From Planctomycetota bacterium (GTDB lineage Bacteria; Planctomycetota; MHYJ01; WSZJ01), in NCBI GenBank assembly GCA_038060895.1, contig JBBTCT010000005.1, positions 37,713 through 101,712 of the forward strand: a stretch of DNA of 64,000 nt, given 5' to 3'. Made by a program: the position numbers and the translations under genes. The notes beneath the pieces were generated by a model. It had not been told where the DNA came from. It saw nothing but the letters and a program-made list of their open reading frames with translations, and searched no databases. Of the stretch, positions 38,468 to 52,325 are shown piece by piece (position 1 is the stretch's first letter; the number at the start of each line of letters is the position of its first letter).

Positions 38468-40444
38468 TTACTTCATCGCCTTGTAGAAATCCTCGTACTC
38501 CTTGTTCAGTTTCTCGAGGTCCCCGAAGCACTCCTTCGCCCCGTCGAAACTCCCGCCCTTGTCCACCTCGATCTTGAAGTACTTGTTGAACGCGTCCTTG
38601 TACTTGCCGTTCTCGTAGGTGTACAGGAAGTACACGACGGACCACGATTGCGCGTACATGTCCTGTACGTAAGTTCGTTTCGCCGGGTTCCTCGACTCCA
38701 TGGCGAACTGCATGTAGTTGATGTTCATCAGGTCCTTCAGCTTCTTGTGCTTTCCGTCCGCGATCATCTTTTTCATGTACGGCTTGTAGTTGCTGGAGAC
38801 CTCGCCCAGCAGGAAGCCGCCCTGCGCGTCGCGCTTGAAGCTCTCGAAGAACGTCGCGATCCCTTCCGTGAACCAGAACATGTTCACGCTGCGCCGCTCG
38901 CTCAGCTTCTCGACCTTCATCTGCGAGACGGTGTGGACGAGCTGGTGAATGCCCTCGTGGAAGAGGGTCTCGTAGAGCTGGCTCGTGTCCTTGTAGATGA
39001 AAATCCTGCCGGTGCCGGGCTCGAAGTGACCGCCGGCCCACGGCGTCGGGTTGGCGATCTCGTGGTAACGCTGGCTCGATTCAAAGATGTAGATGAAGCA
39101 GACTTCGTTGGCGCCGAACGACTTGACGTCGAATAGTGCGCTGTACTTGTCGAAGAACAGCTTGTAGAGGTGGACCATGATGTCCCGGAAGTCCTTGAGC
39201 ATCAGCTCGGCGCTGTAGCTCGAGGACTTCTCCATGCACAGGACGTGCGGAGAGTCCGGAGCGCAGTCCAGGTAGACACGGTCGTCCGGGCCCTTGTTGC
39301 CGTAGGCCTTGAAGTCCTCCTTCATCGAGAAGACCTTCTTCTCGCGAGGCCCCAGCTTGTCGTAATCGGCGTTTTTGGCCGTGGCTGCCGTCGCCGTCTG
39401 GGCAAGGTCCGCTTCCATCTTGTCGTACCACTTGCCGTTCACCTTCACGTCGCCGATCAGCAGGTGCGCCTTCTCGGAGTCCGGGGCGTGAATCTTGACC
39501 ATGGACGTTGCGAGTGCGAACGCCTCGTCGTCCAGCGCCGCCTTCTGGAGCCAGTCCAGGAGGCCGTCGAGCTTCGCAGGATCGCTTCCCGCTTCCTGCT
39601 TCTTCTGGTTCGTGTAGACCCAGCGCAGCTTGTCCTGCGCCTTCGTGTACTTCCGGTCGAGCTTGACGGCCTTCATGTAATACTGGACCGCCGTCTCGCG
39701 ATCGCCCTTCTTCTCGCAAGCCTCGCCGAACTCATAAGCCGCGCTCGGGCTGTCGTCGGCGTACTTCCGCATCTTCTCGAACGCCTCGTCCTGTTTCGCG
39801 GACGAAGAGCCCTTTTCTCCCTTGCCGTCCTCGTCCTTCTTGCCGGCCATGACGAAACCGACGATGGCAATGACGACGACAAGGGCGCCTCCGCCGATGC
39901 CTGCGAACAACATCGTGTTGTTTTTCTTCGGGGCAACGGGCATTCCCGACCCGCTACGGCCACCGGCAGGAACTCCCGCGCGGCCACGACCCGGCGATGA
40001 GTGCGCGACCGGGGCGCTTCGGCCACGCGCGCCCGCCGAACGGCTCAGGCGCATCGGCTGCGATTCAGGTTCCGGCTCGGGTTCAGGCTCGGGCTCCGGC
40101 TCCGGCTCGGGCTCCGGCCGCCGCGCCGCCGAACGACGCATGGTCGGCGCCGTCGAAGAGGGTGCCGGGGGCCGCGGCCCGGAGCGCTGCGCGGCGGGCC
40201 GGGCTGCGGGGCGACCTGCGCTCGAAGGGCTCTCCGATACCTCCGAGCCCCGCTTGCGGAATACGTTCGTCGTCTGCGGGGAATCCTCGGGGAAGAAGTC
40301 GGCAGGCATCTCCTCGGTCGGCGCAGCGTCTTCGCCGGGGACCGTGAAGACCGACTTGCATTTGCCACATTTGAGCTGTTTGCCGGGAGTAAATGACGAA
40401 ATGTCGAACCGGGCGCCGCATTCCTCGCACTCGTATAGCTTCAT
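38468..40444 (-). CDS. Zn-ribbon - disordered linker - TM - TPR - DUF1570 gluzincin-type metallopeptidase
   Basis: CEECG...CGKC, (PE)n linker, TM, TPR, intact LFHEGIHQL plus WFTEGIATFFE, YAQSWSVVYFL. Confidence 0.85.
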   Translation of the reverse strand: MKLYECEECGARFDISSFTPGKQLKCGKCKSVFTVPGEDAAPTEEMPADFFPEDSPQTTNVFRKRGSEVSESPSSAGRPAARPAAQRSGPRPPAPSSTAPTMRRSAARRPEPEPEPEPEPEPEPEPESQPMRLSRSAGARGRSAPVAHSSPGRGRAGVPAGGRSGSGMPVAPKKNNTMLFAGIGGGALVVVIAIVGFVMAGKKDEDGKGEKGSSSAKQDEAFEKMRKYADDSPSAAYEFGEACEKKGDRETAVQYYMKAVKLDRKYTKAQDKLRWVYTNQKKQEAGSDPAKLDGLLDWLQKAALDDEAFALATSMVKIHAPDSEKAHLLIGDVKVNGKWYDKMEADLAQTATAATAKNADYDKLGPREKKVFSMKEDFKAYGNKGPDDRVYLDCAPDSPHVLCMEKSSSYSAELMLKDFRDIMVHLYKLFFDKYSALFDVKSFGANEVCFIYIFESSQRYHEIANPTPWAGGHFEPGTGRIFIYKDTSQLYETLFHEGIHQLVHTVSQMKVEKLSERRSVNMFWFTEGIATFFESFKRDAQGGFLLGEVSSNYKPYMKKMIADGKHKKLKDLMNINYMQFAMESRNPAKRTYVQDMYAQSWSVVYFLYTYENGKYKDAFNKYFKIEVDKGGSFDGAKECFGDLEKLNKEYEDFYKAMK

Positions 40445-40540
40445 CGGGCAGCTCCGTGCTGGGCCTGAAGAAACTCGGGGATGCCGGGATACTCCGGCAC
40501 CATTAGAACGCCGCCGGAGACACACCCGTTCCCTGCATTC

Positions 40541-40948: not shown

Positions 40949-42349
40949 CTACCCACTACTCCCTGCGTCCTTCCCGATGTCCCCCAGCTTGTACTCCTTG
41001 ATCTTCCTGTAAAGCGTGCGCTCGCCAATCCCCAGAATCCTCGAAGCTTCCTCCCGGTTTCCCTTGGTCATTTCAAGCGTCGAGCGGATCAGCTCCGTCT
41101 CGGCGCGCTCGAGGCTCATCCCGGCGAACACGGCGGACGTGCCGGGCGCCGCCGTTTCGCGCCGCTGGGCAATCTCCTCCGGGATGTCCTTGACGTCCAG
41201 CACGGGCTCCCGCGCCAGCACCACCATGGCTTCGAGCGTGTTCCGCAGTTCCCGCACGTTCCCCGGCCAGCGGTACGCGAGAAGCGCGGCTCGCGCGGCC
41301 GGCGAGATCCCGTCGATGCGGCGGTTGTGCTGCTGGGAGAAATCGCGGATGAAGTGATCGATGAGGAGCGCGATGTCGGACTGGCGGGCGCGGAGAGGCG
41401 GGAGATTGATCATGACGACGCGCAGGCGGTAGTAGAGGTCCTCGCGGAACTTCCCTTCGCGCACCATCTCTTCCAGGTGCCTGTTCGTGCTCGCGATCAG
41501 GCGGACGTCCACGGGAATGGGCAGATTCGAACCGACCCGGTAAACGCACCGTTCCTCAAGGACGCGCAGGAGTTTCGCCTGCGTGGAAAGCGGCATGTCG
41601 CCGATCTCGTCGAGCAGGAGCGTCCCGTGGTTGGCGAATTCGAAGCGCCCCTTGCGCGCCCCGATGGCGCCGGTGAACGAGCCCTTCTCGTGCCCGAACA
41701 GCTCGGACTCGATCAGCCCTTCAGGCATCGCCGTGCAGTTGATGGGGATGAAATGGTGGTTGCGCCGCGGCGAATTCCGGTGGATCGCCTTCGCGACCAG
41801 TTCCTTTCCGGTTCCGCTTTCGCCGGTAATGAGGACGGTCGCCGAGGTCGGTGCAACCTGTTGAAGCGTGTTGAAGACCTTCTGCATTGCCTCGGAGTTT
41901 CCGATGATCCCGCCGAACCCGAACTTGCGGTCGAGTTCCTGGTGGAGAAACAGGTTTGAGCGCGAGAGATCCTGCTTCTCGACGACCTTCTCGATGACCG
42001 CGCGCAACTCGGCGATGTTGAGCGGCTTCTTCATGTAGGTCGAAGCGCCCTTTTTCATCGCCTCGACGGCGCTCTCGACGGAAGCGAAGCCGGTCATGAC
42101 GACGACCTCGATGTCCGGGTGAAGGCGCCGGGCGGTCGTGAGGATTTCCATCCCGTCGATGTCGCGCATGACCAGGTCGGTCAGCACGACATCCACGTGC
42201 TCGGACTCCAGAAGTTCGAGCGCGGCCTTCCCGCCGCCGGCGACGAGCGTGCGGTAGCCGGTCCGGCGGAGGGATTCCGCCATGGTTTCGGCGTGTTCGG
42301 GGTCGTCATCGACCACGAGGATCGTGACGTCGGTGGAAGTGGGGGTCAT
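40949..42349 (-). CDS. Sigma54-dependent response regulator (NtrC/AtoC family)
   Basis: Receiver, GESGTGKE, ESELFGHEKGSFTGA, LLLDEIG, FREDLYYRL, WPGNVREL, Fis HTH. Confidence 0.95.
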   Translation of the reverse strand: MTPTSTDVTILVVDDDPEHAETMAESLRRTGYRTLVAGGGKAALELLESEHVDVVLTDLVMRDIDGMEILTTARRLHPDIEVVVMTGFASVESAVEAMKKGASTYMKKPLNIAELRAVIEKVVEKQDLSRSNLFLHQELDRKFGFGGIIGNSEAMQKVFNTLQQVAPTSATVLITGESGTGKELVAKAIHRNSPRRNHHFIPINCTAMPEGLIESELFGHEKGSFTGAIGARKGRFEFANHGTLLLDEIGDMPLSTQAKLLRVLEERCVYRVGSNLPIPVDVRLIASTNRHLEEMVREGKFREDLYYRLRVVMINLPPLRARQSDIALLIDHFIRDFSQQHNRRIDGISPAARAALLAYRWPGNVRELRNTLEAMVVLAREPVLDVKDIPEEIAQRRETAAPGTSAVFAGMSLERAETELIRSTLEMTKGNREEASRILGIGERTLYRKIKEYKLGDIGKDAGSSG

Positions 42350-42379
42350 AGGCGGGGGGTTGGAAGGAGGGAAAGATTT

Positions 42380-42502
42380 AACCCCAACCCCAACTCCAAC
42401 TCCAAATTCCAACCTTCGATGAAAGGACCCGGTCCGTCAATGGCCACCCACTCAAGGAGTCGACCTCCCGATCGCCGAAATTGGGGTTGGGATCCGGAAT
42501 TG
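42380..42502. repeat. Intergenic CCAACC/CCAACT hexamer repeat with short inverted copy
   Basis: AACCCCAACCCCAACTCCAACTCCAAATTCC at 42380 and TTGGGGTTGGG at 42481; same unit as at 19737. Confidence 0.65.
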
Positions 42503-42506
42503 TCTT

Positions 42507-43235
42507 TCAAAGCGGTATGGCCCCTCCCGCCCTGGGCGCCAACTCGCCTTCAACCGGAAGCCGTATCGTAAAGCAACTCCCCTTCCCCTCCTCGCTCGTC
42601 ACTGTCAGCGTCCCGTCATGCTCGTGCACGATCCTCCTCGCCGTCGGCAACCCGAGCCCCGTCCCCGTCTTCTTCGTCGAGTAGTACACGTCGAAACACC
42701 TCGCCGCCGCCTCCGCCGACATCCCCGTCCCCGTATCGATCACGTCCAGCTGGGCGAAATCACGCCACCTGGCCGTCTTCAGGATCAGTTCCCCCCCGTT
42801 CGGCATCGCCTGGATCGCGTTCATGACGAGGTTGAGCAGGGCCTGCTTGAAGAGGTTTGCATCGACAGAAACCTTCGGAAGTTCGCCGAGCGACCTCAGG
42901 ACGCGGACTTTCTTCTGCGTCGCCTCCGGCGTGACGAAATCCAGCACTTCCCCGATCACCCGGTTCAGGTCGGTCGGGCGGTTGTCCAGTTTGTGGCCGG
43001 CGGCGAACCGGAGGAAGTCGTTGAGGATTTCCTCGAGACGGGCTGTTTCCTTGAGAAGGAGAGTGAGGCGCTGAAGCGCACGCCGCTCGCGTTCGTCGCG
43101 GGGCTCCTCGAAATCCTCCTGCAGCAGCTGCAGATTGGCCTGCAGAGTCGAGAGGGGGGTCCGGATCTCGTGCGCCAGCCCGGCGGCCAGCTGGCCGAGA
43201 AACGCGAGACGATCGCCTTCCTTGTTCTGAGACAC
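42507..43235 (-). CDS. Histidine kinase without sensor domain (HisKA + HATPase)
   Basis: LGQLAAGLAHEIRTPL starts at about residue 13; NLVMNA, DTGTG, GTGLGL; no TM. Confidence 0.88.
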   Translation of the reverse strand: MSQNKEGDRLAFLGQLAAGLAHEIRTPLSTLQANLQLLQEDFEEPRDERERRALQRLTLLLKETARLEEILNDFLRFAAGHKLDNRPTDLNRVIGEVLDFVTPEATQKKVRVLRSLGELPKVSVDANLFKQALLNLVMNAIQAMPNGGELILKTARWRDFAQLDVIDTGTGMSAEAAARCFDVYYSTKKTGTGLGLPTARRIVHEHDGTLTVTSEEGKGSCFTIRLPVEGELAPRAGGAIPL

Positions 43236-43385: not shown

Positions 43386-45227
43386 ATGGCCGCCGACATC
43401 CAGGACTGGCTTTCCAATCGCGACATGTTCGCGCGCCGCGTCTCCTCGCACGAGGTGCTCGGCCTGCTGAAGCGGTCCTTCACGGTCCCCGCGCACACCA
43501 TCGCGGCGGTCGTGGAGAACGGCTCGCGGCGCGTGGCCAAGGGCGGTGAACAACTCAGCGGCCGCTTCGACGCCGTCCTCATCAAAACCCAGGAAATGCC
43601 GGTCGCCTTCCAGATGGCCGGGCTGCGCTCCAAGGACGGGTTCGGCATGAACGCCGGGGTCCGCCTCACGCTTCAGCTCGAATCCTACGAGCCCGATCGC
43701 GTCGAGGACTTCTGCCGGAACTTCACCGCGGCCAACGCGACCACGTCGTCGGAGGACCTGCGGTCGTACCTGGCGGTGGACGTGAAGCGCGCGCTGTCCG
43801 AGTACATTTCTTCGCACGAGGCGGCCGACCTCCAGAATTCCCAGGCGTCGTCCGACGTCGAAGGGGGGCTGCGAAGAGCGCTGGAAGGCCCGCTCTTCGG
43901 CAAGGGTCTCAACTTCCGGAAGCTCATGGAGCTCGAATTCCACAGCGACTCCTTTGAGAAGTCGCGCGACGAAGCGCGGAAGCAGAACGAGAAGATCCGT
44001 GAGCACGAGGGAGTTCTTCTCGACCAGCAGCGGCGCGAGGAGAAGCTGAAGAATCTCGCGGCGCTGATGAAGAGCGCGGACGCGCAGGAGGTCTTCAAGG
44101 AGATCCGCGACGAGCGCGTCAAGTCGCTGCTGTACGCGAAGCTCATGGAGAACGACCTGAAGGACCTCTCGAGCGAGGACCTGCGCGCGAAGCTGAACCA
44201 GTGGGGAGACGACCTGATCGGCGTCGTGCTCAAGGCTTACGCGGCGCTGGCGGAGGCGCCGGATGCGCCGGTGGAGCCCGGGAAGACCGGGAAGCTGGCG
44301 CGCGTCGTGGTCACGGCGGGATCGCGGGTGTTGCTGTTCAATCCCGTCGATTTCACCGGCTCGTGCCGGCTGATCGACGCGGGATTCAACCTGCGCAGCG
44401 CGAGAATTCATCCCTGGAAAGGGCGCGGTCTGATTTTCGCGGGTGGAAAGCGGCAGATTTCGGCGATCGACCCGGAGACCACGCAGTCCGTCGCCGCGTA
44501 CCCGCTTCCCCAGGAGAAAAAACCCAAGGGCGGCGTGAATGCTTCGGCGGTCTGGAAGCACCGGATGTTCGCGACGCACAGCGAGCTGGGGCTGATCGAG
44601 TGGGACCTGAACAGGCCGGGCGTTCCGGGAGTGACGATCAACGCCGACCTGACGGCACTTTCCGCGACGGTGCGGGCCGCGGTGACGACCGCGGACGGAT
44701 GGCTGTATTTCGCGAGCGGACGGACGGTGTACGGGATGGACCTGGAAAAGGGAACGCCTCCGGTCGCGTTCGGGCCGCAGACGCCGAGCGGCGTGACGGC
44801 GCTGGCGGTCGGCGAGCGGCTGATCGTGGCGGGGTGCGGAAGCGGGAACGAGGGCGCGTTGTCGATATGGGACCGGCGCGATCCGTCGCGCGCCGTCGGC
44901 GTGATCCGCAGGAATGCGCCGATCGGGAGCGTGCGCCTGACGTCGATCGGAGGCGTGCCGCACATGCTGTTCACGTGCCGCGACCACGGCGTCACGGCGC
45001 GCGTGATCGGGCAGACTCTTGAGACCCACTACGATGCGGGCGAGCACTCCGTGATCCTCGCCGAGGGCGGCTCCGATCATGTCGTCGCCATCGACCACAA
45101 CGGGCGCTTCCTCATCGCCTGGGACGCCGCGCGCCCTGCGAAGCCGCGGAAGATCCTGGACCTGAACGCGTACACGGACCAGGCGGTGTACGACCTGGCG
45201 CCTGTTTTCGGGGAGGGCGGCGCGTGA
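43386..45227 (+). CDS. SPFH/band-7-like domain + coiled coil + WD40-like beta-propeller
   Basis: TVPAHTIAAVVENG, LRSKDGF....V.LTLQL, L..KGLNF (band-7 pattern); charged helix; beta repeats e.g. VTALAVGERLIVAG...LSIWD. Confidence 0.65.
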   Translation: MAADIQDWLSNRDMFARRVSSHEVLGLLKRSFTVPAHTIAAVVENGSRRVAKGGEQLSGRFDAVLIKTQEMPVAFQMAGLRSKDGFGMNAGVRLTLQLESYEPDRVEDFCRNFTAANATTSSEDLRSYLAVDVKRALSEYISSHEAADLQNSQASSDVEGGLRRALEGPLFGKGLNFRKLMELEFHSDSFEKSRDEARKQNEKIREHEGVLLDQQRREEKLKNLAALMKSADAQEVFKEIRDERVKSLLYAKLMENDLKDLSSEDLRAKLNQWGDDLIGVVLKAYAALAEAPDAPVEPGKTGKLARVVVTAGSRVLLFNPVDFTGSCRLIDAGFNLRSARIHPWKGRGLIFAGGKRQISAIDPETTQSVAAYPLPQEKKPKGGVNASAVWKHRMFATHSELGLIEWDLNRPGVPGVTINADLTALSATVRAAVTTADGWLYFASGRTVYGMDLEKGTPPVAFGPQTPSGVTALAVGERLIVAGCGSGNEGALSIWDRRDPSRAVGVIRRNAPIGSVRLTSIGGVPHMLFTCRDHGVTARVIGQTLETHYDAGEHSVILAEGGSDHVVAIDHNGRFLIAWDAARPAKPRKILDLNAYTDQAVYDLAPVFGEGGA

Positions 45228-46249
45228 GCGACGGCGCGGGGACGTGCGCGGCCTGCGGGCGGACGTATCTGTCGCGAGTCGGGATTTTTCGCGATGACGC
45301 GGCGTGCGCGACGTGCGGCAAGCCGATCTGCGCGGCGTGCTGGAGCGACAAGACCACGTTCTGCCAGGAGCACGAGGACGTACCGGTGGCGACGCTGGCC
45401 GACGCGCCGAAACCCGGGGACATCCCCACGGGGCAGGTGCCGGCAGGGTCGATCAGCCGCCAGTCGGCTCGCGAAATGGAAGAGGGATTCCTTTCGCGGG
45501 TGAGGAAGAACTTCCGCCAGCTCGCGGGGATTTACAACCCGCTGGATGGCCGCTGGTACGACGTCATCGAGCGAAATACGGGCGAGTACGTCGTCGACCT
45601 GGGGGCCGAGGCCGCGAAAAACGCGGTTCGCGATCGCGCGAAATCGGGCTTCAACGAAATCCTCGCTTCGATGCCCACCAACCGCGCCGCCGTCTGCGAC
45701 GTCTTCGCGCGGGACTTTCTCGGCGCGAAAGTGAAGAAGATCTGCCTCGCCGGGGTGTCGCTCTCCCCGCTCGACGAACTCGTAAAGCCGGGCTGGTCGA
45801 GCCAGCCGCTCGGGTACGCGGCGGTTGCCCAGGCCCAGCGGCGCATCGTCACGGATCCGGGCGTCTTCTATTACCTCTGCTATTTCGCGACGACGGGCTG
45901 GTCCGGAGAAGCGCGCGACATCCTCGCGAACGGGCCGAATTTCGTCTCGTGCCTCGTCGAAAAGCAGGCGGATTCGTGGCGCATCACCGCGAAGGACGAC
46001 GGCCGATGGGGCGATGCGCTGGCGGTGTACGACCTGGAGACGTACTCGGAGAAGCGCGACCGGGTGCAAATTTTCGTGAAGCGGCACACGTACGAGCTGC
46101 TGATGGACCGTTTGAGCGACCGGTATGTGTGCGAGAAGACGGGGCTGCCGCTGGACGTCGTGAGGGCGTCATTCCGGGATCTTTCGCAGGATCCGTTTGT
46201 GCACCTGACGGCGGATGAGGAGCAGTTCCGGATATCGCGGGTTTACTGA
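45224..46249 (+). CDS. Zn-finger protein with probable C-terminal winged helix
   Basis: CAACG...CATCGKPICAACW...FCQEH; alpha/beta middle (FATTGWS); tail LSDRYVCEKTGLPLDVVRASFRDL followed by a beta hairpin. GTGA coupling to the upstream gene. Confidence 0.6.
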   Translation: MSDGAGTCAACGRTYLSRVGIFRDDAACATCGKPICAACWSDKTTFCQEHEDVPVATLADAPKPGDIPTGQVPAGSISRQSAREMEEGFLSRVRKNFRQLAGIYNPLDGRWYDVIERNTGEYVVDLGAEAAKNAVRDRAKSGFNEILASMPTNRAAVCDVFARDFLGAKVKKICLAGVSLSPLDELVKPGWSSQPLGYAAVAQAQRRIVTDPGVFYYLCYFATTGWSGEARDILANGPNFVSCLVEKQADSWRITAKDDGRWGDALAVYDLETYSEKRDRVQIFVKRHTYELLMDRLSDRYVCEKTGLPLDVVRASFRDLSQDPFVHLTADEEQFRISRVY

Positions 46250-48448: not shown

Positions 48449-48940
48449 ATGAGAGTGGCGACGAGCGGCGACCCGACCGTGGCGATGTGGGCGGCGCAGC
48501 GTTACGACCCCGCGTCGGCGCTTCGAACGGCCTGGGGGAAACTGTTCCGCATCGTGGCGTGGTGCACGGCGGCGCCCTCATTCGGGCTGCTCGCATGGAG
48601 CACCATCGCATACGCGCGCCTCGACGGGCCTTCGGGTCTCCAGACGCTCGGCTACTTCCTGAACGACTACGTCGCCGCGTGCGGCGTCGGGCTCGCCGCG
48701 CTTTTCGCGTCGATCGCACTCCCCCGCCTCCGGCGCCGCGACGTGCCGATGCTCTTCGGCGGGTGCGCGGCCGCCATCCTGCTCCTTTACCTGCCGAGTC
48801 TCTTCAACGCCTGGCCCGTGCTGCGCGAGAAGAAAATGCCCGCCACTGCCGTCGTCCCGCTGGCTTTCCCGTTCGCGCTCCTCTCGATCGCGGCTGCGGC
48901 CGCGGTGCTGGCGAAGCGCCCCAGGCCAAGGGCGGCGTAA
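48449..48940 (+). CDS. Small integral membrane protein (about 4 TM)
   Basis: Four hydrophobic segments; 7 nt after the previous gene and 3 nt before the ATPase. Confidence 0.65.
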   Translation: MRVATSGDPTVAMWAAQRYDPASALRTAWGKLFRIVAWCTAAPSFGLLAWSTIAYARLDGPSGLQTLGYFLNDYVAACGVGLAALFASIALPRLRRRDVPMLFGGCAAAILLLYLPSLFNAWPVLREKKMPATAVVPLAFPFALLSIAAAAAVLAKRPRPRAA

Positions 48941-48943
48941 ACC

Positions 48944-50167
48944 ATGGACCTCTACACGCCCATCAAGCAGGCGCTGACGAAAGCCAAGGAACTCTACGAG
49001 GCGCGCGAGCACGACAAGGCCGCCGCTTCCTACGACAAGGCCGCTTCCCTCATGTCGATCTACGCCGAGCAGGCGATCGGGCGCGACGCGGAGATGAGGC
49101 GGCGCAAGAAGGCGGTGGAGTACCGCGAGATCGCCAAGAAGCTGCGCAGCGGCGAGATTGAAGCGCCCGGCGCGAAAGACGACCGCGATGACAATGGAAG
49201 CGCCGCACCGGCGGCGGCCGCCGCGGAAGGCAAGCAGGCAAAAGCCGCCGGCGAGGTCAAGGCGGCCGTGCTCTCGCTGATCAAGACCTCTTCGATCGGC
49301 TGGGGAGACATCGGCGGACTGGAGCCGACAAAGGAAGAAATCAAGTTTGCGCTCGGGATCACTCTGGCGAAGCAGCCGGCGAACGTGCAGCTCTCGGCCT
49401 GGACGAACATCCTGTTCTACGGACCGCCCGGGACCGGGAAGACGCTTCTCGCCGCCGCGACGTCGCACGCGATCCGGAACTCGGACGACATCCAGGCGGT
49501 GTTTTTCAACGTGAAGGTGTCGTCGATCCTCTCGAAGTACTTCGGCGAGTCGTCGAAGATCATCAGCGAGCTCTACGGCACGGCCCGTGACACGTCGCCG
49601 GCCGTCATCTTCCTCGACGAATTTGAGTCGGTCGCTGGGAAGCGCGACGACCAGGACTCGGGGCCGGAGCGGCGGATCATGTCGACGCTGCTTTCCGAGC
49701 TGGACGGGATGGAGGCGAAGGGGCGCCGGGACATCTACGTGCTGACGATTGCGGCGACGAACCGGCCGTGGGATCTCGACCCCGCGGTGCTGAGCCGGTT
49801 TGAGAAGAAGATCCTGATTCCGCTTCCGGACATGGTCGCGCGGCGTGAAATCCTGAGGATCCACCTCGACAAGCGCGGCTTCCAGGTGAACGCGGACGCC
49901 GCGCAACTGGCCACCGCGACGGAGGGGTACAGCGGGCGCGAGATCGAGCGGCTGTGCAAGGAGGTCACCACGCGGATGGTGGCGGAGATGAACCGGGAGA
50001 TTCCGGGGCTGATCGACAAGGGGCTGGACACGGTGAGGACCTACCAGCTCAAAGTGAGGCCGCTGGGAATGGGGGATTTCCAGAAAGCGATCGCGAAGCT
50101 CCATCCGCAGACGACGGCGGCCGACGTGAAGAAGTACAACGAGTGGAGAGAGGCGCAAGTGGAGTAA
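48944..50167 (+). CDS. MIT-domain AAA+ ATPase, Vps4/CdvC-like
   Basis: Three-helix N domain (A..YDKAA...KKAVEYREIAKKL), WGDIGGLE..K, GPPGTGKT, pore loop SKYFGES, IFLDE, ATNRPWDLD.AVLSRFEKKILIPLPD, GYSG, C-terminal helix TAADVKKYNEW. Confidence 0.85.
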   Translation: MDLYTPIKQALTKAKELYEAREHDKAAASYDKAASLMSIYAEQAIGRDAEMRRRKKAVEYREIAKKLRSGEIEAPGAKDDRDDNGSAAPAAAAAEGKQAKAAGEVKAAVLSLIKTSSIGWGDIGGLEPTKEEIKFALGITLAKQPANVQLSAWTNILFYGPPGTGKTLLAAATSHAIRNSDDIQAVFFNVKVSSILSKYFGESSKIISELYGTARDTSPAVIFLDEFESVAGKRDDQDSGPERRIMSTLLSELDGMEAKGRRDIYVLTIAATNRPWDLDPAVLSRFEKKILIPLPDMVARREILRIHLDKRGFQVNADAAQLATATEGYSGREIERLCKEVTTRMVAEMNREIPGLIDKGLDTVRTYQLKVRPLGMGDFQKAIAKLHPQTTAADVKKYNEWREAQVE

Positions 50168-50912: not shown

Positions 50913-50984
50913 AGTATGTAGGAAGTGGCCTTTTTGGACGGGGATGAGGGATTTTCGAAGCTCAGAGCGAGCGCGAGAGTGACT

Positions 50985-52325
50985 ATGCCAGAACCATGGG
51001 AAGCAAAATGGCGGCTGATCCGTTCAATCGGAGAGGGTGGCCAAGGGGTTACCCACCTCGTTTCCGACAGGGCAGAGCCCTGCCGCATGGGCGCACTCAA
51101 ATTGCTGAAAAACAACAAAAGCAGCGAAGCACGAACGCGGATGCTTCAAGAAGTGACGAATCTTCAAGTCGTCCACACTCAGAAGGGGCGAGTTCCGGAC
51201 GTGCTCGATTCCAATGTTCAGTTCCACGCCGAGAACGTTCCTCTCTACTTTGTCATGGAGTACGTCGACGGCGTAACCCTGACCAAGCGAGTGAGGGAGT
51301 GCGGCGCCCTATCTGTTCAGGACTCGTTGAGCCTGTGTCTCTCGATCTGCAGAACGCTAGAGATCGCGCACCGGTTCAGCATTCAGCACCGCGATTTGAA
51401 ACCGGACAATGTACTGATTCCGACCTCGCGTCCCGCGGAACCCATCCTTGTTGACTTCGGGCTCTCCTTCAATGAAGAAGACCACGACTCGGTCACGAGA
51501 ACCAACGAGACGATTCAGAATCGGTTTCTAGCTCTCCCAGAACTTCGGGTACCTGGCGCGTCAAAACGCGACACCCGCTCCGATGTGACTGCAGTGTGCG
51601 GAATGCTCTACTTTTGCCTGACCGGATTCGAGCCCGTTGACTTGAGTGACGGGTCTGGCAGAGCCCCTCACCGCAGACCTGTTCCTCACGGCTTCCCGGT
51701 CGAATTGCAGAAGTCTCAACTGGCTGCGCTGTTCGACCGAGGATTTCAGATTGATATTGGAAACAGATTTCAGTCGATCGAAGAACTCATTCAGAGGGTT
51801 CTGCACGTTCAGAGTGATGCGCCCGACAAATCGGTCGACCTGGTTGAGAAGGCAAGGGTGGCGAGTTCAGAGCTTCGCCGAAGAAGTAGCAAGCGCCGAG
51901 CCGCAGTCTTTCAGACTTGCGTTGGAGTCTTTGGGGCAAAGCTAGCCGACTTTGTCCAACGACTGAACGGCACCATCGCCGACTTCTCAGTAAGCCACGG
52001 ATCAAAGACACCCGGAATGCCACTGCCAGCTGGAAGTGTTCAGATTCTCGACGTGAGCCACTCAGTAACGTTGAGCTTGAAGGGTCATCAAAACTCCTGT
52101 TCCTTTATCTACAACTGCGCGCTCGAGGAAAACCAGATGGTCCTACTTCGAAGTCGGCTTAGATACGGAATTCCTGATCCTTGGAATCCCCCTTCTGAGA
52201 ATTGGGAACGGGTCGCATATTTCCCCACGCCAGAAGAACTTGATTTCGCTCCGATCGAAGCGGATCTCAGATCGACACTTGCGTTTGGGATGGAACTCAT
52301 GGTCGACAAGCTCGGAGATGCCTAG
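50985..52325 (+). CDS. Ser/Thr protein kinase (soluble, atypical codon usage)
   Basis: IGEGGQG, ALK, VMEYVDG, HRDLKPDN, DFG, LPE, SDV. Confidence 0.9.
   Translation: MPEPWEAKWRLIRSIGEGGQGVTHLVSDRAEPCRMGALKLLKNNKSSEARTRMLQEVTNLQVVHTQKGRVPDVLDSNVQFHAENVPLYFVMEYVDGVTLTKRVRECGALSVQDSLSLCLSICRTLEIAHRFSIQHRDLKPDNVLIPTSRPAEPILVDFGLSFNEEDHDSVTRTNETIQNRFLALPELRVPGASKRDTRSDVTAVCGMLYFCLTGFEPVDLSDGSGRAPHRRPVPHGFPVELQKSQLAALFDRGFQIDIGNRFQSIEELIQRVLHVQSDAPDKSVDLVEKARVASSELRRRSSKRRAAVFQTCVGVFGAKLADFVQRLNGTIADFSVSHGSKTPGMPLPAGSVQILDVSHSVTLSLKGHQNSCSFIYNCALEENQMVLLRSRLRYGIPDPWNPPSENWERVAYFPTPEELDFAPIEADLRSTLAFGMELMVDKLGDA

Follow-up and report, generated by a model that had tools for sequence, protein, structure and literature searches.

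A Vps4-like AAA ATPase encoded beside a Snf7 homologue in Planctomycetota, a candidate bacterial counterpart of the ESCRT-III/Vps4 pair

Whether bacteria possess a counterpart of the pair formed by the AAA ATPase Vps4 and its ESCRT-III partners is the question raised by the locus described here. It is located on a 64,000-nucleotide stretch from the genome of a Planctomycetota bacterium (assembly GCA_038060895.1, contig JBBTCT010000005.1, positions 37,713 to 101,712 of the forward strand), referred to in the following as the window. The locus comprises a gene for an ATPase composed of an MIT-like, an AAA and a Vps4_C region, and a downstream gene encoding a Snf7-family protein, termed H4. This pairing is at variance with literature placing such machinery outside bacteria: according to the available part of a 2025 review (PMC7619361), an ATPase of the Vps4 type ‘appears absent in bacteria’, and the available part of the main comparative study in the field (PMC10936438) describes ESCRT homologues as identifiable in archaea ‘but not in bacteria’. 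No paper describing a planctomycete ATPase-Snf7 module was found in a literature search that had subscription journals and supplements outside its scope. Nevertheless, the idea of a bacterial ESCRT/Vps4 system is not wholly unanticipated, since bacterial PspA/Snf7 operons with AAA+ ATPases are mentioned in passing in the available text of Ravi et al. (10.1101/2020.09.24.301986), and homologues bear labels such as ‘Snf7 family protein’ and ‘katanin p60’/‘Vps4 family’ in public annotation. Based on domain architecture, features of the meiotic clade of AAA ATPases, profile comparisons and an adjacency of both genes that is conserved across Planctomycetota, it is proposed that the locus probably represents a bacterial counterpart of the ESCRT-III/Vps4 pair and functions as a membrane-remodelling module.

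Pfam analysis of the ATPase revealed a single AAA cassette (residues 156–294, E 1.5e-34), and neither a transmembrane (TM) segment nor a protease domain was detected in the Pfam scan. An open reading frame (ORF) of this kind had been described in the original prediction, made from the DNA sequence alone, which had furthermore claimed an N-terminal three-helix domain of about 70 residues, a flexible linker and a terminal helix resembling Vps4_C. All of these elements were recovered in the AlphaFold2 model, which was calculated from 68 relatives and reached a predicted local distance difference test score (pLDDT) of 90.3: helices were placed at residues 4–19, 23–42 and 47–69 with pLDDT values of about 90, followed by a linker with values below 50 at residues 75–89, and the terminal helix spans residues 392–406. 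Moreover, Pfam Vps4_C matched residues 357–402 with 28.7 bits, above the gathering score of 21.3, and AAA_lid_3 remained marginally below its threshold (26.7 versus a cut-off of 27.2).

The motifs of the cassette comprise Walker A (G160–T167), Walker B (D225/E226), the pore loop (K198–S203), sensor-1 (N273) and a second region of homology (SRH) with a single arginine, R285, and S284 just before it. The Vps4 motifs quoted in the original prediction are present and conserved within 68 family members, including W276 (66/68) and R285 (68/68), and the same applies to D225 (68/68), E226 (64/68), the K-Y-F-G-E-S pore loop, Walker A and N273. The pore loop had likewise been put forward as a Vps4 signature. 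It is indeed present and conserved, but it is not diagnostic, because D1 and D2 domains of Cdc48-like proteins carry near-identical S-K-Y-x-G-E-S-E loops. At the position of the beta domain in eukaryote-type Vps4, members of the bacterial clade feature a stretch of 48–55 aa, similar in length to that of archaeal-type Vps4 (45–47 aa) and shorter than the 75–110 aa found in 12 Vps4-type sequences with a full Vps4_C. The beta-domain insert is therefore considered absent, in line with the earlier suggestion that it is short or missing as in archaeal CdvC.

Assignment of the ATPase to a position beside the meiotic clade, and not among Cdc48 or FtsH proteins, is supported by a discrete character, by the C-terminal region, by structural superposition and by phylogeny, in agreement with the central claim of the original prediction. 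Relative to Cdc48 and FtsH, the meiotic clade is characterised by the loss of two residues between the positions of the SRH arginines. In an alignment of 100 rows, the bacterial clade (41/41 rows) and the sequences of the Vps4/katanin/FIGL1 type (31/31) show this deletion without exception, and the two residues are present in all 28 other rows, namely D1 (9/9), D2 (9/9), the paralogue ATP2 described below (8/8), one FtsH-like protein and one other AAA protein. Searches with the last 78 aa of the ATPase against the PDB (E ≤ 1) yielded six sequence matches, all of which are katanin p60, KATNAL1, ATAD1 or Msp1. The best single-domain PDB sequence match of the ATPase is katanin p60 (170.5 bits); two-domain entries of Cdc48/p97 were top-ranked only through summing two domains of approximately 136 bits each. 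Among the structures retrieved with VIA-align, the top 13 are exclusively spastin, KATNAL1/katanin, FIGL-1, Metallosphaera sedula Vps4 or yeast Vps4, showing Z-scores of 28.5–29.7, root-mean-square deviations (rmsd) of 1.9–2.6 over 264–284 residues and identities of 28–34%. The best target-normalised TM-score in Foldseek was likewise obtained for M. sedula Vps4 (4d82_B; 0.86, rmsd 3.0). Furthermore, several homologues of the ATPase are annotated as katanin p60 by JGI.

For phylogenetic analysis, reference AAA genes were taken from metagenomes by means of a pore-loop pattern, so that the sampling is biased towards Trp-type pore loops, and were labelled via Pfam and the PDB. Eleven of the references carry Pfam MIT and AAA domains, ten of these also Vps4_C. 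Reference L064 is of the katanin type (387 bits to KATNA1), L070 is of the fidgetin-like-1 type (385 bits), and L112 has yeast Vps4 as its best single-domain PDB match, the MIT domain included. At the metagenome loci L112, L130, L119 and L121, an MIT-Vps4 gene is accompanied by an ESCRT-II (Vps25-like) neighbour, which is the archaeal arrangement, and L119 and L121 additionally possess Snf7. Further rows represent family members, bacterial relatives, ATP2 and two-domain Cdc48-like proteins split into D1 and D2, and the FtsH-like gene of this genome served as root. The short or partial rows ATP2_L050, META_L086 and META_L132 were left out, and the resulting matrix of 100 rows and 291 columns was analyzed with IQ-TREE using LG+C20+F+G4 with posterior mean site frequencies (PMSF).

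The bacterial clade, consisting of the family and its bacterial relatives (41 rows), received support values of 100/100, and the meiotic set (31 rows) of 99/98. Both groups were united with 100/95, and their union with ATP2 was supported by 100/96. D1 and D2 of Cdc48-like proteins were placed outside the union, and a quick tree showed the same topology. The maximum-likelihood tree, which had been named as a check in the original prediction, hence joins the ATPase to the meiotic set, as sister and not inside Vps4. One member of the bacterial clade, P0177 (599 aa), features a C-terminal fusion to a diadenylate cyclase domain (DAC/DisA_N; Pfam E 1e-16), a possible sign that certain lineages are connected with c-di-AMP signalling.

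For the N-terminal three-helix bundle, a profile built from 20 sequences had the MIT domain of SKD1/VPS4B as its best PDB match (E 0.0095, positions 4–73 aligned to 9–78). Nine of the 41 PDB matches of this profile are MIT sequences of Vps4A/B, each covered over the whole domain, and the others represent partial matches to TPR, bS20 and p85. Comparison by hhalign with 11 Pfam-verified MIT domains resulted in a value of 77.9% (E 1.8e-5) over 68 columns from end to end, versus 0.95%, 0.11% and 0.26% for three helical controls. Moreover, MIT/KATNA1_MIT are the nearest named clusters to residues 1–75 in the Atlas (scores of 0.83–0.87), which is taken as a lead only. These matches are of moderate significance, and homology of the N domain to MIT is regarded as likely but not settled.

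The second component, H4, was compared as a family profile with two Pfam-verified archaeal Snf7 proteins encoded beside Vps4, and hhalign returned 94.6% (E 6.8e-8) over 138 columns. Pfam Snf7 (PF03357) was found in 18 of the 27 members of the H4 family at E ≤ 0.01, with a best value of 6.5e-8. Furthermore, many H4 homologues of 60% identity have precomputed PF03357 assignments, and one of them is named ‘Snf7 family protein’ by NCBI. The AlphaFold2 model of H4 (pLDDT 69) features helices at residues 7–49, 52–110, 115–143 and 160–195, corresponding to a long hairpin and shorter helices, and nine of the ten top Foldseek matches are CdvB, CdvB2 or CHMP2A-CHMP3, with weak E-values of 0.2–0.5. These profile and model comparisons identify H4 as a Snf7 homologue. 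The protein ends in a conserved helix of acidic, amphipathic character, which is predicted to act as an MIT-interacting motif (MIM). A predicted complex of the N domain of the ATPase with the H4 tail (residues 150–198) gave an ipSAE of 0.00 in two runs without controls, a value that weighs neither way on binding.

Conservation of the pairing was apparent at several evolutionary distances. An H4 homologue is encoded within 1.5 kb of the ATPase gene in 27 of 30 loci and was found in the wider flanks of 18 of 20 loci, the genome set of the latter overlapping that of the former. Gene order is the same in all seven close relatives as far as the contigs reach, and the ATPase-Snf7 pairing is kept among sequences down to 44% identity. 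At a threshold of E ≤ 1e-60, 57 of the 401 Planctomycetota genomes sampled were found to carry the ATPase family, which is represented in 39 of 288 genera; among genomes of high quality, the proportion is 20 of 243. The paralogue ATP2, also a single-cassette AAA protein bearing Vps4_C, follows H4 in many distant loci. In the genome analyzed here, it is encoded on another contig (G000 contig C15, L059:8780-9955, minus strand), beside an adenylate/guanylate cyclase-STAND-TPR protein and a large Ser/Thr kinase, and Pfam detected no Snf7 gene near it.

These distribution data also bear on the origin of the locus. That an archaeon or a eukaryote had recently donated it, or was present as a contaminant, was considered and rejected as very improbable, because the guanine-cytosine (GC) content of the locus (0.57–0.67) lies inside the range of the window (0.57–0.73), bacterial genes surround it, gene order is conserved in metagenome-assembled genomes of Planctomycetota, the ATPase family extends over 39 genera and the bacterial clade is long, deep and supported by 100/100. 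An ancient archaeal origin is a different matter. Archaea-to-bacteria transfers of Vps4-like genes are reported in the available text of Ravi et al. (10.1101/2020.09.24.301986), and in the approximately unbiased (AU) test a topology joining the bacterial clade with the archaeal Vps4 proteins L119 and L121, a grouping chosen after the tree had been seen, was not rejected (delta lnL 21.65, p-AU 0.111), which leaves room for such an origin. The family is accordingly either a sister group of the entire meiotic clade or an early branch of archaeal Vps4.

Several results weigh against reading the locus as an ESCRT-III/Vps4 counterpart. Among NCBIfam models, CDC48 (179.8 bits) and PAN (176.3) scored above CdvC (167.6) for the ATPase, all far under their cut-offs, and the cut-off of 650 bits of the cell_div_CdvC model (NF041006) was not reached. 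MIT-bearing archaeal-type Vps4 proteins from metagenomes likewise fall short with 245–325 bits, so that this model is considered narrow, and the tie between CDC48 and CdvC says little because true MIT-bearing Vps4 proteins show the same tie. In Foldseek, p97, FIGNL1, katanin and Vps4 were tied at E ~1e-19 for the ATPase model, and the first Cdc48 entry in VIA-align (Z 28.1) is a near-tie, less than two Z units below the best. The free tree places the family as sister to the whole meiotic set and not nested in Vps4, with bacterial AAA proteins carrying other N-terminal regions as nearest relatives; moreover, this tree was calculated without PAN/Rpt, NSF, Pex and Bcs1, its references were motif-picked and its bootstrap had not settled (correlation 0.975).

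The component domains are affected as well. Pfam MIT gave no match to the N domain of the ATPase in the protein search, a six-frame scan of the genome missed this domain and returned 17 weak partial matches, all elsewhere, and in only one of 20 family N domains was an E-value of 0.0011 reached. For the MIT domain claimed in the original prediction, the three-helix bundle, the hhalign result and the top match to VPS4B MIT count in favour, and the silence of Pfam MIT counts against. H4 of the window itself scored 12–15 bits (12.1–15.2) against Pfam Snf7, under the gathering score of 27.3. For the three helical proteins encoded upstream of the ATPase gene, H1–H3, Pfam Snf7 was found in none of 18 H2/H3 members at E ≤ 10, and hhalign values for H2/H3 and H1 were 0.2% and 0.1% against the H4 family and 0.2% in both cases against archaeal Snf7. 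Finally, the position of the first SRH arginine is occupied by Ser (S284) in 63 of 68 family members, R285 being invariant, which means that one canonical arginine finger is missing and that the two trans-acting SRH arginines of the meiotic clade are not both present in the ATPase.

The last of these deviations is accompanied by a second one. In 66 of 68 family members, Arg332 was observed in a G-x-S-G-[A/S]-D motif of the lid, at a position taken by Ala or Ser in other classic AAA proteins, and the Ser284/Arg332 pair occurs in 37–40 of the 41 rows of the bacterial clade. Within the 31 meiotic rows, the Ser state was found in two, L119 and L121, which are the same and only two with the lid Arg. 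Both are archaeal Vps4 proteins with MIT, Snf7 and ESCRT-II neighbours, so that the swap does not conflict with a function as Vps4. Possibly, the change is compensatory, the lid arginine standing in in cis for the finger acting in trans. If the planctomycete pair works like ESCRT-III/Vps4, its ATPase would represent a natural variant for studies of the AAA mechanism, in which a trans arginine finger was lost and a lid arginine gained.

Coordinates of the ATPase, its regions and the neighbouring genes are summarized in Table 1. The genes for H1, H2, H3, a small membrane protein and the ATPase follow one another with overlaps or with no more than 7 bases in between, and H4 follows 148 bases further on. 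The four helical proteins, whose C-terminal peptides had been named in the original prediction for a modelling check with the MIT domain, exist; H4 is a demonstrable ESCRT-III homologue, but H1–H3 are without detectable Snf7 homology. H2 and H3 are paralogues of 45% identity, to which H1 is weakly linked (hhalign 33%, E 4.5e-4). All three resemble ESCRT-III proteins in length, helicity and the division into a basic N-terminal and an acidic C-terminal half, and an Atlas lead for H2 points to a cluster with 16% Snf7. Weaker H1-like matches were obtained in many distant loci.

Table 1. Features of the planctomycete ATPase-Snf7 locus; positions refer to the window.
Feature	Position	Strand	Evidence or remarks
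Vps4-like (meiotic-clade-like) AAA ATPase, 407 aa	48944..50167	+	MIT-like domain, linker, AAA cassette, lid, C-terminal helix; Pfam, AlphaFold2, VIA-align, tree, SRH deletion
N-terminal three-helix bundle, MIT-like, residues 1–69	48944..49150	+	AlphaFold2 helices and profile comparison
Disordered Ala/acid-rich linker, residues 70–90	49151..49213	+	pLDDT <50 at residues 75–89
AAA cassette, residues 156–294	49409..49825	+	Pfam AAA E 1.5e-34; conservation in 68 rows
ATPase residue 284	49793-49795	+	Ser at first arginine-finger position
ATPase residue 332	49937-49939	+	Arg in lid G-x-S-G-x-D motif
Vps4_C-type C-terminal region with terminal helix, residues 357–406	50012..50161	+	Pfam, PDB matches, AlphaFold2 helix
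H4, Snf7/ESCRT-III family protein, 198 aa	50316..50912	+	hhalign, Pfam in relatives, AlphaFold2, Foldseek, linkage
H1, helical protein, 233 aa	46469..47170	+	Distant relative of H2/H3; ESCRT-III-like charge asymmetry
H2, helical protein, 221 aa	47167..47832	+	Paralogue of H3
H3, helical protein, 202 aa	47833..48441	+	Paralogue of H2
Small membrane protein, 163 aa, 3–4 hydrophobic segments	48449..48940	+	Close relatives only
Accessory protein, 341 aa, Cys-rich N terminus	45224..46249	+	No known family; homologues in 13/20 distant loci
Accessory protein, ~610 aa, N half helical, beta-propeller at the C terminus	43395..45227	+	Start codon approximate; homologues in 11/20 distant loci

Pfam, NCBIfam and PADLOC returned nothing for H1–H4 and the small membrane, Cys-rich and propeller proteins of the window. 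The Cys-rich protein showed a weak FYVE-like Pfam match under the cut-off and has no PDB relative. The propeller protein matched designed propellers (E 3e-11) and contains a weak prohibitin-2-like stretch in its helical N-terminal half (E 0.09). The small membrane protein was not detected in the 20 distant loci. Contigs from an RNA library of one aquifer sample are 99–100% identical to parts of the genes for H1 and H3, for the membrane protein and for the ATPase and H4, and one of them bridges the gap between the ATPase and H4 genes; DNA carry-over is possible, so that these contigs do not demonstrate transcription. A scan for promoters and terminators was uninformative (no promoter-like site; seven terminator-like sites versus 7.0 expected). 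Further upstream, genes of bacterial type encode an NtrC-type regulator (40949-42412) and a histidine kinase (42507-43235). In addition, an ORF of 685 aa on the minus strand (38468-40525) combines a Cys-pair motif at its N terminus with a long repeat of Pro-Glu dipeptides, a hydrophobic segment and, close to the C terminus, an H-E-x-x-H motif.

Directly after H4, a Ser/Thr kinase gene (50925-52325, plus strand) was identified that matches the anti-phage model PD-T4-6 of PADLOC with E 1.6e-99. This kinase could point to a function of the ATPase in general unfolding or in signalling within a defence or kinase-linked island, in which the adjacency to Snf7 would be without ESCRT-like meaning. Kinase genes near the module in several distant loci, a match of the ATPase to IetA models of PADLOC (E 2e-36) and the diadenylate cyclase fusion of one clade member would fit this explanation. 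However, a PD-T4-6-like kinase is not beside the module in six of the seven close relatives, the one match showing 26% identity and being encoded on the other strand at a distance of about 2 kb, so that the kinase looks like an independent insertion. The kinases of the distant loci are only 24–33% identical, and the IetA score reflects ordinary AAA-cassette similarity, ranking under those of CDC48, PAN and CdvC. Together with the conservation of the ATPase-Snf7 pairing down to 44% identity, this makes the defence explanation unlikely.

For the favoured interpretation as an ESCRT-III/Vps4-like pair, the following mode of action is proposed. H4 would form polymers on the cytoplasmic membrane, with the basic N-terminal half facing the lipid and the acidic C-terminal tail left exposed. 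The ATPase would assemble into a hexamer and, in the manner of Vps4, katanin and spastin, pack its C-terminal helix across subunits, and its MIT-like domain would dock on the C-terminal helix that H4 leaves exposed, and perhaps on the tails of H1–H3. An H4 subunit could then be threaded through the K-Y-F-G pore loops, and ATP-driven extraction would remodel or dismantle the polymer, the outcome being membrane shaping, scission or repair. Polymerisation, tail binding by the MIT-like domain, assembly of a hexamer, disassembly driven by ATP and the cellular role are all inferred. If the pair works in this manner, it would offer a testable candidate for membrane remodelling in Planctomycetota and would bear on the question of when the Vps4-ESCRT-III partnership arose.

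Which cellular process the module might serve can be narrowed down by its distribution. FtsZ above the TIGR00065 cut-off was found in none of the 401 Planctomycetota genomes, including the one analyzed here, with 24 genomes showing weaker FtsZ-like matches, and the available part of a 2018 review (PMC6524685) describes the vesicles and membrane invaginations of planctomycetes as forming by unknown mechanisms. A far-reaching and rather doubtful interpretation is that these FtsZ-less bacteria hold an ancient, vertically maintained ESCRT-III/Vps4 machine for ATP-dependent scission in budding, division, vesicle formation or invagination, with an ATPase lineage branching next to and not inside the archaeal-eukaryotic meiotic clade, and that the partnership is not an archaeal invention. 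In this case, it would predate the split between bacteria and archaea or would have crossed domains very early, and it would provide a molecular handle on planctomycete membrane biology. Since only 57 of the 401 FtsZ-less genomes carry the ATPase family, it is not the general division machine of the phylum.

The same restricted distribution would suit a membrane stress and repair system, in which H4 would coat and seal damaged membrane and the ATPase would recycle H4, the module substituting functionally for PspA and having no role in scission, division or trafficking. PspA_IM30 was not found in this genome, versus nine of 14 control genomes that possess it; however, the genome is 86.5% complete, and a pspA gene may be unassembled. 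Repair is argued to be the ancestral role of ESCRT-III in the available part of PMC7619361, and the available part of PMC10936438 describes SPFH proteins in the company of PspA and of archaeal ESCRT loci, to which the prohibitin-like stretch of the propeller protein would correspond; this match is, however, not significant. A specialisation in repair is accordingly rated as a tentative alternative, and the present data do not separate repair from scission, both of which would be compatible with an ESCRT-III/Vps4-like pair.

The planctomycete module was compared with several known AAA systems. With Cdc48/p97/VAT and FtsH, the ATPase shares the classic AAA cassette, but it is a single-cassette protein without N-terminal double-psi barrel, protease domain or TM segment. 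Moreover, Cdc48-like domains (18/18) and the FtsH-like row keep the two SRH residues missing in the planctomycete ATPase and are placed outside in the tree. Eukaryotic Vps4, katanin p60, spastin and fidgetin-like 1 resemble it in fold and C-terminal helix according to VIA-align. In contrast to these meiotic-clade ATPases, it has no beta domain and hence no Vta1-type site, one of its arginine fingers is replaced, its identity to PDB chains amounts to 28–34%, and it is sister to the group, not nested within it.

Bacterial pairs of PspA/Vipp1 with PspF or other AAA+ proteins likewise combine a protein from the ESCRT-III superfamily with an AAA+ ATPase. H4, however, matches Snf7 and not PspA_IM30, and PspF is a sigma-54 activator, unlike the planctomycete ATPase, which is predicted to be a classic-clade, meiotic-type unfoldase with an MIT-like domain.

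With the archaeal systems of Vps4/CdvC and ESCRT-III (CdvB/Snf7), the planctomycete module shares the MIT-like N domain, the flexible linker, the single AAA cassette and the terminal helix. The lack of the beta-domain insert, the Snf7-family neighbour and the SRH deletion correspond to archaeal Vps4 proteins devoid of a beta domain, and the exchange of an arginine finger for Ser together with the lid Arg corresponds to L119 and L121. Unlike archaeal Vps4/CdvC, the planctomycete ATPase forms a separate clade in the free tree and scores far under the CdvC cut-off, neither an ESCRT-II/Vps25-like nor a CdvA gene was detected at its locus in the Pfam scan, and its accessory genes differ, comprising those for H1–H3, which belong to another family, and those for the propeller and Cys-rich proteins. 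Its pore loop carries Tyr in place of the Trp of the sampled Vps4 proteins, a sample that was chosen by a Trp-containing motif. Finally, in the bacterial Vps4-like examples described in the available text of Ravi et al. (10.1101/2020.09.24.301986), snf7 has been displaced by a TPR/6TM gene following transfer from archaea, whereas Snf7 is retained beside the ATPase at the planctomycete locus.

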